A stretch of 64,000 nucleotides of DNA from an uncultured candidatus Porisulfidus sp. Its GTDB lineage: Bacteria > Pseudomonadota > Gammaproteobacteria > Poriferisulfidales > Oxydemutatoraceae. The first letter of the stretch is position 1; each line of letters begins with the position of its first letter. The translations under genes were made by a program, and so were the position numbers. The notes beneath the pieces were generated by a model, which saw only the letters and a program-made list of their open reading frames with translations, made no database searches and was not told the DNA's origin. Location: the NCBI GenBank assembly GCA_965200865.1, contig CBDAVG010000002.1, positions 1,583,942-1,647,941 of the forward strand. The letters are read 5' to 3'. Of this stretch, positions 877 to 60,100 are shown one piece after another.

Positions 877-1017
877 GGGGTTGTTGAAAAAGTATTTCAT
901 GCACCCGTAAGGGGTAATTGTCTAGTGCAGAACCACCACAACCACCCCGTCAGGCTGCGCCTGCCACCCCTCCAAAGGAGGGGAATGTACTAATGCAGAC
1001 ACTTTTTCAACAGCCCT
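877..1017. repeat. MITE-like mosaic repeat, cluster C1
   Basis: Bounded by inverted termini GGGGTTGTTGAAAAAGT (877-893) and ACTTTTTCAACAGCCC (1001-1016). Contains the CCCCTCC-AAA-GGAGGGG hairpin (967-983). The same modules recur at six other sites in the window. Confidence 0.8.
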
Positions 1018-1062
1018 ATTTCATTTGATAGAATAGACATCTTATTATTCACATTTAATTTT

Positions 1063-1944
1063 ATGACACCTAAAGCAAATACGATTCAGGGCATGTTGTT
1101 ATGCTTACAGCATTATTGGGCAGAACAGGGTTGCGCATTATTACAAGCCTGCGATCTGCCTATGGGAGCAGGCACATTCCATCCAGCAACTTTTCTGCGA
1201 GTGTTGGGCAGCGAACCTTGGCGGTGTGCCTATGTGCAGCCATGCCGACGTCCCGCAGATGGTCGTTACGGCGACAATCCTAATCGCTTGCAACATTATT
1301 ATCAGTTTCAAGTTATCCTAAAACCTTCACCACACGATATACAGCAGCTGTATCTAGATTCTCTAAGCGCATTAGGCATTGAAACTGATCGGGACGATAT
1401 TCGTTTCGTAGAGGATAATTGGGAGTCACCCACGCTAGGGGCTTGGGGTCTAGGTTGGGAGGTGTGGCTCAACGGCATGGAGATTGGGCAATTTACTTAC
1501 TTCCAACAAATGGGTGGGGTAGAATGTGCGCCAGTCACGGGCGAGATTACGTACGGCATAGAACGTCTAGCAATGAGCCTGCAACAAATAGATAATACTT
1601 TTGATTTGCTGTGGGCAGACTCCAAGCACTCACAGCTCCATTATCGTGATTTATTTCATCAAAATGAAAAACAACAATCGGCTTATAATTTTGACGAGGC
1701 AAATGTACCTCAATTGAAGCGACAATTTGACGAAAAAGAGCAAGAGTTTTTGCAGTTGATGGAAAAGGAGTTGGTGTTGCCTGCTTATGAGCAGGTCGTT
1801 ATAGCCTCTCATTTTTTCAACTTACTTGATGCTCGAGGGGCAATATCGGTAACCGAAAGACAACGTTATGTATTGAGAATCGGTAAGCTCGCATATCGGA
1901 TTGCCCAATATGTGAGCGAAAGCGAAACCAAGAATAAACAGTAA
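1063..1944 (+). CDS. glyQ: Glycine--tRNA ligase alpha subunit
   Basis: 293 aa. N-terminus [21 protein letters not shown]...GAGTFHP is typical GlyQ. Immediately followed by glyS. Confidence 0.97.
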
Positions 1945-1983
1945 CTGCTCACCTTATATAGAGGACCAAAATCATACAAGAAA

Positions 1984-58551: not shown

Positions 58552-58822
58552 GGTATATTTAACTATGGCTTATTTGATATAAGATAAACGCTTAGGTAGA
58601 TGCAGTGCCTAGGAAGTCGGAGGAGACACGCTCAAGAGAGGATTAGGCATTAAAGCCTGTTAACATGATAAGCACTCCTCCGGCGTTATGACTATAGAGC
58701 TCGTAAGGCAGCTTGGGACTTTAGATCTCGTATTTACCTGTTTGGGCGGCGTAGTCATACTTTCCTAAACTCTGCTTGATACCTAGTAATTCATTCATTC
58801 AATAACTATTATGGAGGAAATT
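58552..58822 (+). ncRNA. Candidate bridge (guide) RNA region in the IS110 non-coding left end
   Basis: A ~270-nt non-coding stretch lies upstream of the recombinase ORF, against ~57 nt downstream. It contains 6-8 nt matches to both target flanks and both IS ends (details in findings). Confidence 0.35.
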
Positions 58823-59812
58823 ATGGTGAAACACAAACAACCTGCCGCAATCGGCATTGATGTCTCTAAAGACACTTTAGAGGTGGCATTATTATTCGTT
58901 GACGAGAGTTTCTCGGAAGCACAATTTAGAAATAATATCAAAGGTATTAAACAGCTGTTAGCTTGGCTTGCCGAACAGGGCGCAAAGTGCTGCCCGATCT
59001 GCGTTGAAGCCACTGGTGGCTTGGAGACAAACCTTTGCGAGCGAGCTTCCCGGGCTAAAAATCCGATACAGGTGGCACCCCCGGCTCAAGTTGCCTATTT
59101 TCGCAAAAGTCTTAATATGCGTAATAAAACTGATGGCGATGATGCGCGCTTAATTGCACGCTTCGCAGTGTCAAACCCTAATTATCGGTGGACCAGTTCG
59201 TCACAGGCTATCCAGACCTTGAAGGATGCTCTCAAACGCAGACACAAACTGACATTAGCGAAGACGATGTTAAGGAATAGTGAAAAGACTTTGCGCACCG
59301 CTGGACAAAAGCGCAGTGCGGCTGCAGACTTGAGACACCTTGAGCAACGCATCGATCAGATTGATGCTTCAATCGAAAGGCTTATTGCCGAAAACGAACA
59401 ACTTGCACAGACCTGCAAATTATTGTGTTCGATACCCGGTATCGGTATGCAAATCGCAGCCACCCTGTGTGCAGTATTAGATGATAATACGTTTGAGCAT
59501 CCCAAGCAACTCGCTGCTTTTATCGGCATCGCACTAATGCGCAGACAATCCGGCAACTGCGAAGCACGGGCTCATATCTCTAAAATTGGCAAACGCTGCC
59601 TACGCACCGCTTTGTTTATGGCGGCACTCTCGGCACGGCTTCATAACCCCATTATCCGCGACTTTGCCAACCGCTTGCAACGCCGACGCCCGGAGTTAAG
59701 CAAAAAGGAAATCATTGTCGCTTGTGCACATAAGCTCGCCCGTATTATTCATGGAGTACTCAAGCACAATAAGCCGTTTGACCCGCGTCATGAGTGTCCG
59801 GCTGCGGCCTAA
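58823..59812 (+). CDS. IS110-family DEDD recombinase/transposase
   Basis: ATG 58823 is preceded by GGAGG (58813-58817). N-terminal RuvC-like DEDD domain (AIGIDVSKD..., VEATGG, DGDDARLIA) and C-terminal Transposase_20 domain (IPGIGMQIAATL..., SKIGKRCLRTALFMAAL). Confidence 0.92.
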   Translation: MVKHKQPAAIGIDVSKDTLEVALLFVDESFSEAQFRNNIKGIKQLLAWLAEQGAKCCPICVEATGGLETNLCERASRAKNPIQVAPPAQVAYFRKSLNMRNKTDGDDARLIARFAVSNPNYRWTSSSQAIQTLKDALKRRHKLTLAKTMLRNSEKTLRTAGQKRSAAADLRHLEQRIDQIDASIERLIAENEQLAQTCKLLCSIPGIGMQIAATLCAVLDDNTFEHPKQLAAFIGIALMRRQSGNCEARAHISKIGKRCLRTALFMAALSARLHNPIIRDFANRLQRRRPELSKKEIIVACAHKLARIIHGVLKHNKPFDPRHECPAAA

Positions 59813-59871
59813 ATAGATATTCAGAAAAGGAGATAAAAAATGAGTAAAATGACTTGATTTTAAATAAGGCA

Positions 59872-60100
59872 TCATGTTAGCCCTCCCCTACCAGTTGCAT
59901 AAATTTTATGGATAAATGGATTGTTTATACAAGGATGACGCGTTCGGGTGGTTTGCGTGACTTGGTGGCGCAAGCGGTTCTGTTTGTGCAGAACGGTACT
60001 TTAGGGAAGGCATGTTAGCCCTCCCCTACGGGTGGTTATCATAAATTCAATGGCGCAAGCGGTTGAGTTTATACAATAGCGGTACATTTTCAGCAGCCTC
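59872..60100. repeat. Mosaic repeat cluster C7 (right of the IS)
   Basis: Starts with the right half of the interrupted family-V module (CATGTTAGCCCTCCCCTAC...), followed by a second, intact family-V copy (~59962-60060) and a degenerate terminus ATTTTCAGCAGCC. Confidence 0.8.

Follow-up and report, generated by a model that had tools for sequence, protein, structure and literature searches.

A probable nest of small mobile elements in the mosaic intergenic repeats of a 'Candidatus Porisulfidus' genome

Two kinds of short bacterial repeats come closest to those described here. Repetitive extragenic palindromes (REPs) of Enterobacteria and Pseudomonas are short imperfect palindromes preceded by GTAG, with compensated variation in their stems. 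They lie between genes in mosaic clusters of alternating orientation, as in bacterial interspersed mosaic elements (BIMEs) and the REPIN systems of REP-associated tyrosine transposases (RAYTs), and are targets of IS110-family insertion sequences (ISs). MITEs (miniature inverted-repeat transposable elements) such as Correia, ERIC/IRU, RUP, Nezha and MITEAba12 are bounded by terminal inverted repeats and contain no open reading frame (ORF). They occur in many copies at unrelated loci, fold strongly and form nested or composite units. Here we analyzed a 64,000-nucleotide stretch of an uncultured 'Ca. Porisulfidus' genome (contig CBDAVG010000002.1; hereafter the window), which holds seven intergenic clusters of hairpin modules. 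We read these repeats as a mosaic family of MITE/REP type that is new and belongs to a little-studied lineage. The clusters are probably a nest of non-autonomous mobile elements, made up of the hairpins V and W, MITE-like elements bounded by a terminus T, and an IS110 element. The result accounts for the look-alike long spacers of this genome and provides markers for strain typing and assembly breaks. It also offers a natural example of several mobile elements, an IS110 recombinase among them, competing for one hairpin loop.

The original prediction, made from the letters of the window, described a mosaic intergenic family of hairpin modules in seven clusters. Nine module queries mapped by BLAST recovered all seven clusters and the listed modules at the predicted positions. 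A reading of the sequence agreed, and a repeat finder returned matching families (direct D8–D10 and D13–D18, inverted I1–I17). With at most one mismatch, CTGTTGAAAAAG matched the window nine times against 0.64 expected, and none of 100 dinucleotide-preserving shuffles reached this count. With the same tolerance, TAGAACCGCCG was found six times (0.62 expected); GTGCAGAAC occurred five times (0.44 expected), shuffles again preserving dinucleotides. Folding of whole units yielded −53 to −69 kcal/mol, with z values of −4.7 to −6.6 relative to dinucleotide shuffles. Motif counts, folding and the module map thus support the core of the prediction. The copies it listed are present, but it missed a hairpin at 53890–53929 (minus strand) of the type called M1 below and the degenerate termini of the second cluster. 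The clusters have no coding capacity.

The same elements recur in related genomes. A scan of a genome collection with the hairpin of one module, M3, returned at least 118 loci (numbered with L below). Among those listed, 13 belong to sponge-associated gammaproteobacteria, namely 'Ca. Porisulfidus' (OZ241323.1, OZ244052.1) and Oxydemutatoraceae (OZ244779.1). T, the modules M1 and M2, V and the IS are common to the window and these 13 related loci, with 76–98% identity at unrelated positions, so the repeats are not confined to the window, and the DNA of the window belongs to a close relative of these genomes. Copies of the T-bounded E elements in the window and in the Porisulfidus genomes are 97–98% identical at unrelated loci. 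Among the matches listed, the T, M1, M2 and V families were found only in sponge-associated 'Ca. Porisulfidus' and Oxydemutatoraceae genomes. The M1 pattern gave zero matches in the JGI metagenome collection, and comparison of the E element with plasmids gave weak, partial M3-like matches only, with uninformative annotation. At the gathering threshold of Rfam 15, the window yielded three tRNAs alone, and at E ≤ 10 nothing relevant was detected on cluster 4 or on an M3-bearing Chryseobacterium locus. We found no description of these repeat families in the literature. The prediction that they cannot be assigned to a named repeat class has therefore stood.

The clusters were resolved into a terminus and its cargo. 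T consists of GGGRYTGTTGAAAAAGT and its complement, which form imperfect inverted repeats of 16–25 bp around units of 120–260 bp without ORFs. Inversely oriented T pairs enclose five units in the window and eleven in the related loci, and close strongly folding structures. The inverted GTTGAAAAA-type termini that had been predicted to frame clusters as in MITEs are thus present in five window units. Across the window and related genomes, four inner sequences adjoin T: ATTTCATGCACC leading to a GTAG hairpin, GTGTCTGCATTAGTAC leading to M3, TAGAACC leading to M1, and GTACCGTC leading to V. Four different inner sequences beside the same T imply that the terminus is constant and the cargo variable. 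The cargo comes in two kinds: M1, to which M2 and M3 may be added, and W plus V. The former corresponds to the predicted three-part unit U: its modules are real, but their combination is not fixed, as M2 is optional and the M3a part may be missing, and U itself is carried as cargo by T-bounded elements. Four mutually compensated versions of the M1 stem were seen (GCCGATTGA, GCCGTTTGTTGC, GCAGTTTGTTGC and GCCACTTGA). M3 is a 47-base module comprising (A)ACCACCCCG, a hairpin of free sequence, and CCACCCCTCC-NNN-GGAGGGGAAT. The T-bounded elements and M modules of the window are as follows.

877..1016, plus strand: E element variant 1, from the sequence and the module map, T-bounded with left terminus 877-893 (GGGGTTGTTGAAAAAGT) and right terminus 1001-1016; the cargo is a degenerate GTAA-hairpin, GTGCAGAAC and M3 at 940-986.
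13136..13276, minus strand: U unit with degenerate termini, M1 at 13219-13276, M2 at 13183-13216 and M3 at 13140-13183.
39484..39735, plus strand: E element variant 2, termini 39484-39498 and 39720-39735, M2 at 39644-39679 and M3b at 39683-39705.
43549..43994, plus strand: stack immediately after a tRNA-Pro gene, from the BLAST map and families D8 and D10, beginning with M1 at 43549-43606.
43684-43743, plus strand: M1-like hairpin of this stack, with the compensated stem GCCACTTGA/TCAAGTGGC.
43775-43854, plus strand: M1 fragment, M2 and M3a fragment of the same stack.
43856-43979, plus strand: full U, closing the stack at the right terminus 43980-43994.
53890..53929, minus strand: solo M1-type hairpin (TAGAACCGCCGTTTGTTGC...GCAACAAACGGC), whose TAG is the stop codon of an aminotransferase gene.
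58281..58429, minus strand: E element variant 2 with M1, M3 and both termini, inserted in a V loop.

The first of these (877..1016) folds with −61.6 kcal/mol (z −6.3) and is 97.8% identical to L042 4507-4645 and 97.0% identical to L051 6529-6662. The U unit at 13136..13276 takes up the entire spacer between the convergent sulfatase and glmS genes. In 39484..39735, the M1 hairpin has the GCCGTTTGTTGC stem variant and carries the predicted loop insert, which measures ~90 nt (39518-39607). A TTCCTTGT/ACAAGGAA hairpin lies within this insert, and a direct AAATAAC repeat borders it. The insert was considered as a further repeat family and rejected, since the window and the collected loci contain no second copy.

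V and W turned out to be one family, with a 5' GTAG, a stem of 6–7 bp, the invariant loop GCTAACATG and a conserved tail reaching to CTGCAC. The stems read GGGAGGG, GGGCAGA or GGGCGGA, each with a matching 3' arm, and are thus compensatory. The window and the 13 related loci hold 17 such hairpins, of which 15 start with GTAGG, one with GTAGA and one with GTAA. Eight of them are uninterrupted; a T terminus splits seven others and the IS the remaining two, and every cut falls immediately after CTAACATG. V is thus a REP-like hairpin and the preferred insertion site of both the T-bounded elements and the IS110 element. The prediction of a second family V, split by an IS, was confirmed by the sequence and the module map. 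V and W are arranged in the window as listed here.

53614..53868, plus strand: T-bounded element with REP-like cargo, left terminus 53614-53631 and right terminus 53854-53868.
53644-53669, plus strand: W hairpin of this element, GTAG at 53644-53647, stem GGGCAGA/TCTGCCC, loop CTAACATG.
53733-53824: V of this element, with its hairpin (53772-53796) read on the minus strand.
58149..58280, plus strand: nested fragments after a tRNA-Met gene, with a degenerate left terminus at 58149-58177.
58178-58194, plus strand: half hairpin of W type (GTAGAGAGG-CTAACATG), interrupted by a T terminus at 58195-58209.
58241-58280: 5' half of a V hairpin in the minus-strand reading, GTAG at 58262-58265 and loop CTAACATG at 58273-58280.
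58504..58548, plus strand: left part of V up to the stem arm GGGAGG (family D13), where the IS interrupts it.
59873..60099, plus strand: rest of the split V (59873-59891 plus tail; families D13, D16 and D18).
59965-60057, plus strand: complete V; behind it, a partial V head at 60051-60075 and then a degenerate right terminus (~60083-60099).

All four V-loop insertions for which both flanks were examined (L042, L051, L057 and window 58281-58429) show a 5-bp direct duplication. The duplicated bases are ACATG in three of them and GCATG in L051, whose loop reads CTAGCATG. The match between this variant loop and the GCATG on both sides argues for a true target duplication. In the window, ACATG stands at 58276-58280 and 58430-58434, and the 3' arm of V (CTCTCCC) resumes at 58435-58441. 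This element is 97.3% identical to L057 6979-7124, which itself lies in another V loop with the same duplication. E elements were found in V in both orientations, indicating independent insertion events. The architecture of 53614..53868 recurs in L086 7536-7791 with 76% identity. The nesting, the duplications and the near-identity of copies at unrelated loci all speak for mobility.

The third kind of element in the window is the insertion sequence.

58549..59872, plus strand: IS110-family IS of 1324 bp, 5' non-coding region 58549-58810 and transposase ORF 58811-59812.

Its transposase matched DEDD_Tnp_IS110 (3.8e-18) and Transposase_20 (7.1e-22) in Pfam. The IS lies between the stem arm and the loop of V, with neither a duplication nor inverted termini. 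The predicted split of V was correct, but the IS starts at 58549, one base from the predicted boundaries (58548/59872). L057 (Porisulfidus) holds a copy of 96.7% identity in the equivalent position of another V hairpin. IS110 elements are known to insert in REP sequences in an RNA-guided manner (PMC1525189, PMC11208160, PMC11187229). The window IS resembles the REP-targeting IS110/IS1111 elements ISPpu9, ISPpu10 and IS621 in both transposase domains, the long 5' non-coding region, the lack of inverted termini and duplication, and the two independent copies at an identical position of a repeat hairpin. It differs in its target, the loop–stem junction of V, which is a new repeat. Within the 5' non-coding region, TTAACATGAT (58660-58669) is complementary over 9 nt to the right junction ATCATGTTA and stands beside a GGAGGAG/CTCCTCC stem; we estimate a chance expectation of about 0.02 such 9-mers. 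This 9-nt complementarity fits the bridge-RNA mechanism of REP-targeting IS110 elements, such as the bridge or seek RNAs of ISPpu9, ISPpu10 and IS621, and the region is a candidate bridge RNA guide. The IS region had no Rfam match.

These observations are best explained by small elements that would insert into and beside one another where insertion harms little, i.e., at the 3' ends of genes, in co-oriented gaps and downstream of tRNAs. The V/W REP-like hairpins would form the first layer. The second would consist of the T-bounded elements with their hairpin cargo, which may be mobilized in trans by a transposase encoded elsewhere, and which appear to favor the V loop and to duplicate 5 bp (ACATG) on insertion there. 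The 5-bp duplication argues for an enzyme of the DDE type and against one of the HUH type. As a third layer, the IS110 element would integrate at the same loop; by analogy with characterized IS110 elements, a bridge RNA encoded in the 5' non-coding region presumably guides it. The M3 cargo is a copy of a pan-bacterial module that elsewhere flanks DUF559 nuclease genes in inverted pairs. The nest might also influence the expression of host genes.

Several findings weigh against this explanation. Neither the window nor 104 kb of related DNA yielded an autonomous element with T termini, and the window contains no transposase matching the termini, as had been predicted. A parent element was sought among the T terminus pairs and rejected, since in the window and the related loci the two termini of a pair always lie less than 420 bp from each other. 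Large ORFs beside the repeats in related loci were also considered as transposases and rejected; by sequence, they resemble repeat-rich surface proteins. Outside V, no target duplication was seen at 877-1016, 39484-39735 and 53614-53868, one of which is a young copy. The T motif also occurs inverted next to inner sequences, and T could be another shuffling module, as in BIMEs, instead of a strict transposase end. Finally, presence of M3 was the criterion for choosing the related DNA, and copy numbers in it cannot be extrapolated.

The T-bounded units share with bacterial MITEs their size of 120–260 bp, the terminal inverted repeats without an ORF, the many copies at unrelated loci (here in three genomes), the strong folding and the nested or composite forms. 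In contrast to the named MITEs, they have no sequence match, and their cargo is a variable set of independent hairpin modules. Furthermore, duplication was seen for V-loop insertions only, and the window and the 104 kb hold no parent IS or transposon. TIMEs, the miniature inverted-repeat elements derived from Tn3, have GGGG outer ends. The T-bounded units resemble them in their 5-bp duplication and G-rich outer ends, but have termini of 16–25 bp as compared with ~40 bp, and no Tn3 transposase was seen in the DNA examined. TIMEs are reported to make 5-bp target duplications (PMC4133298). We regard this resemblance as a lead only.

Three other readings are possible, a pure REP/RAYT system, a system driven by a DUF559 nuclease and a host function, each with less support than the nest of mobile elements. 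In the first, the hairpin modules would be single-strand DNA substrates of a domesticated HUH tyrosine transposase (a RAYT) with a single gene in this genome; this enzyme, together with recombination, would have built the clusters as BIME-like mosaics. V and W indeed have the anatomy of REPs: the GTAG at the 5' side precedes an imperfect palindrome, and stem changes are compensated. The M1 stems are likewise compensated in four variants, the modules occur in either orientation with recurring linkers, and the IS110 family typically targets REPs (PMC1525189). However, in V and W the loop (GCTAACATG) and the tail are conserved instead of the stem, and M1, M2 and M3 have no GTAG. A tblastn search of the window and the 13 loci, a small sample, with IS200 TnpA and Escherichia coli RayT queries found no RAYT or IS200-like ORF. 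HUH enzymes produce no target duplication, whereas four insertions show one of 5 bp, and the T-bounded units have classical terminal inverted repeats. We therefore consider the pure REP/RAYT reading unlikely.

The second alternative concerns M3, which reaches far beyond this lineage. The other M3 loci listed, about 100, come from Chryseobacterium (dozens), Flavobacterium, Pseudanabaena, Chlorobiota, Bacillota, Patescibacteria, Fibrobacterota, Planctomycetota, Elusimicrobiota, Kiritimatiellales, Beta- and Alphaproteobacteria, and others. Bacteroidota, Cyanobacteria, Bacillota, Proteobacteria, Chlorobiota, Patescibacteria and further groups share M3 almost base for base. The flanks showed a conserved unit longer than the search pattern. 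The five window copies match the module of the at least 118 loci, including the region upstream of the pattern. The 78 distinct M3 spacers include 50 different stem arms, with a mean stem of 5.8 bp as compared with 3.8 bp after shuffling, and the loops are mostly of 3 nt. Covariation of the M3 helix was scored on 23 copies of equal length, in which each of the five pairs of the variable helix varies on either side. The score was 0.281 (against 0.071); none of 500 shuffles reached it, and controls with a slid helix scored at most 0.06.

An all-against-all comparison of ORFs in the 118 module-selected loci yielded one family beside M3 across 11 taxa. The family is DUF559 (Vsr-like; Pfam 4e-28 and 1.7e-23), its closest solved structure is 3hrl (4.8e-22), and its members are 45–72% identical between phyla. 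In 14 of the 118 loci, the DUF559 gene lies between inverted M3 modules, and the downstream module encodes its C-terminus (...NHPALKGTPPKEGN). In 80 metagenome loci selected by the protein, the strict pattern detected M3 upstream in 44 and downstream in 29. Twelve apparent misses were read and proved to be variants with a 2-nt loop, diverged modules, or modules overlapping the end of the ORF. Altogether, M3 sequence flanks this mobile nuclease gene in more than 15 bacterial phyla. Tandem M3 arrays were also noticed next to the gene (L139, L147, L168, L029 and L107); the six copies in L139 have a 42-nt period and would encode 14-residue repeats if in frame.

In 25 of the 80 metagenome loci, the DUF559 cassette is read through in frame within a longer ORF. 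The loci considered are these.

In-frame cassettes: L121, L157, L183, L143, L161, L175 and L196 (metagenome); L029, L106, L107 and L069 (genome).

Seven hosts were checked by Pfam or translation: one HsdR, one type ISP/IIG enzyme, two N6/N4 DNA methylases, two HsdS with the cassette between their specificity domains, and one class II fumarase with the cassette just ahead of the HPND motif. The modules translate as NSPPxEGWxxxxxGVV and TTPSxxxxATPPxEGN. A Pfam scan of the in-frame cassettes at E ≤ 1e-5 revealed no Hint or intein domain, and no intron was found in them. Orphan M3 also occurs in frame at one N-terminal site of HsdR (L015 2-781, L106 3-2060) and is absent in two homologues (L029, L107). 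Anditalea carries three tandem copies at this site and a Bacteroidales metagenome-assembled genome one, as compared with none in the Cloacimonadales and Calditrichia homologues, so that orthologous genes differ in the presence of the module. A separate observation is the HsdR-like ORF of a Gallionellaceae genome (L110 3733-7359), whose in-frame insert by eye resembles an IS200/RAYT-type tyrosine transposase (PNHVHVLV...WQHESYDHIV). Judged from this likeness, this restriction gene may harbor a second kind of nuclease gene.

Known homing endonucleases of the EDxHD/DUF559 type reside in group I introns or inteins. The M3-flanked gene resembles them (I-Bth0305I; PDB 3hrl) in being a DUF559 gene, conserved across phyla and inserted in genes. 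It differs in the flanking inverted double-hairpin modules and in that the whole cassette is read through in frame; the window holds the M3 module alone. Rickettsia palindromic elements are short palindromic repeats found both intergenically and in frame in coding genes, and are not known outside Rickettsia. M3 shares this double placement but is unrelated in sequence, spans many phyla and has a nuclease gene attached, and its in-frame copies lie in other phyla, not in the window. DUF559 genes are reported to be enriched among the inverted-repeat-flanked targets of programmed inversions (PMC9881135), in agreement with this arrangement. We found no description of the DUF559 cassette in the literature, and the link between M3 and the cassette is apparently new. 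If so, DUF559 gains a testable role with a defined DNA substrate, and the cassette becomes a candidate for a REP/RAYT-like or homing-like system able to sit in frame in restriction–modification genes.

Tentatively, M3 can be regarded as the cis element of an undescribed pan-bacterial mobile system, in which inverted double-hairpin modules bracket a DUF559 nuclease gene for ~130 amino acids. As parts of the same tentative reading, this system may spread between phyla and leave orphan or tandem modules behind as RAYT leaves REPs. The cassette may insert in frame into type I, IIG and III restriction–modification genes and a fumarase gene without an intron or intein, in which case the host proteins would either tolerate about 170 extra residues or lose the insert by another route, and the window may show an orphan M3 captured as cargo by a lineage-specific MITE. 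Carriage by phages was considered as the route between phyla and rejected, as M3 is rare in IMG/VR (13 stretches), where one close DUF559 match stood among eight weak relatives. The DUF559 protein had no match in plasmids at 1e-20. At the nucleotide level, an unannotated spacer of small Providencia and Proteus plasmids contains a partial M3-like match, for instance in a Providencia rettgeri plasmid (L119; NZ_CP060728.1, 31998-32031; 91% over 33 nt).

With these results in hand, the repeats of the window could be ascribed to the nuclease itself: the modules, or M3 and its carriers, would be cis sites of a DUF559 nuclease encoded elsewhere, and would spread by repair or homing triggered by the nuclease instead of through a transposase. 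Apart from the 3-nt loop, the window M3 does not differ from the module flanking DUF559 genes of other phyla, where the pairing of gene and modules is recurrent (14 of the 118 loci; 44 upstream and 29 downstream flanks of the 80). Nevertheless, neither the window nor the 13 related loci contain a DUF559 gene. In the window, every M3 copy stands alone, without an inverted partner, and lies within a T-bounded unit that extends a further 30 nt outside it; in the related loci M3 is likewise single. Moreover, M1, M2, V and T were not found outside the lineage, judged by the JGI search with the M1 pattern and by the M3 loci among the matches listed. The DUF559-driven reading is hence very doubtful.

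The placement of the clusters bears on the last alternative. They stand between convergent genes, in gaps between co-oriented genes or after tRNAs, and none was found in a divergent promoter spacer. All five spacers longer than 300 bp carry repeats, and so do two shorter ones (855-1063 and 13132-13274). The claim that every long spacer is filled was overstated, however, because five spacers of 250–300 bp are free of repeats (27915-28210, 33683-33981, 35075-35326, 49471-49737 and 50750-51036). The modules occur in either orientation relative to the neighboring genes. The stop codons of glmS (13274-13276) and of the aminotransferase gene (53927-53929) are the TAG of the TAGAACC of M1, and that of lgt (39735-39737) abuts the terminus of an E element. 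Selection for a role as terminators, 3' mRNA stabilizers, operon insulators or small RNAs, in place of mobility, would agree with the 3' positions, the avoided promoters, the very stable structures with compensated stems and the two stop codons supplied by M1. Such a host function is nonetheless very unlikely on the evidence taken together: the main hairpins have no T-run, which led us to reject intrinsic terminators (terminator-like matches are marginal, about one per cluster), Rfam matches are lacking, both orientations occur, nesting, duplications and near-identical copies at unrelated loci indicate mobility, and avoidance of promoters is equally expected from purifying selection on selfish insertions.

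The genes next to the clusters are ordinary housekeeping genes, including glyQ, glmS, thyA, lgt, radC and greA. The window has a G+C content of 42–45% and three tRNA genes, two of them immediately upstream of clusters. At 8004-13132, a sulfatase gene is present in a tandem duplication of ~2.6 kb, with copies of 84–89% identity; the first copy is broken into two ORFs (8004-8501 and 8562-10556). At 32619-36378, in the stretch of lowest G+C content (37.6%), three paralogous ORFs of ~350 amino acids have no Pfam match, and a further repeated fragment sits in the 33683-33981 spacer.

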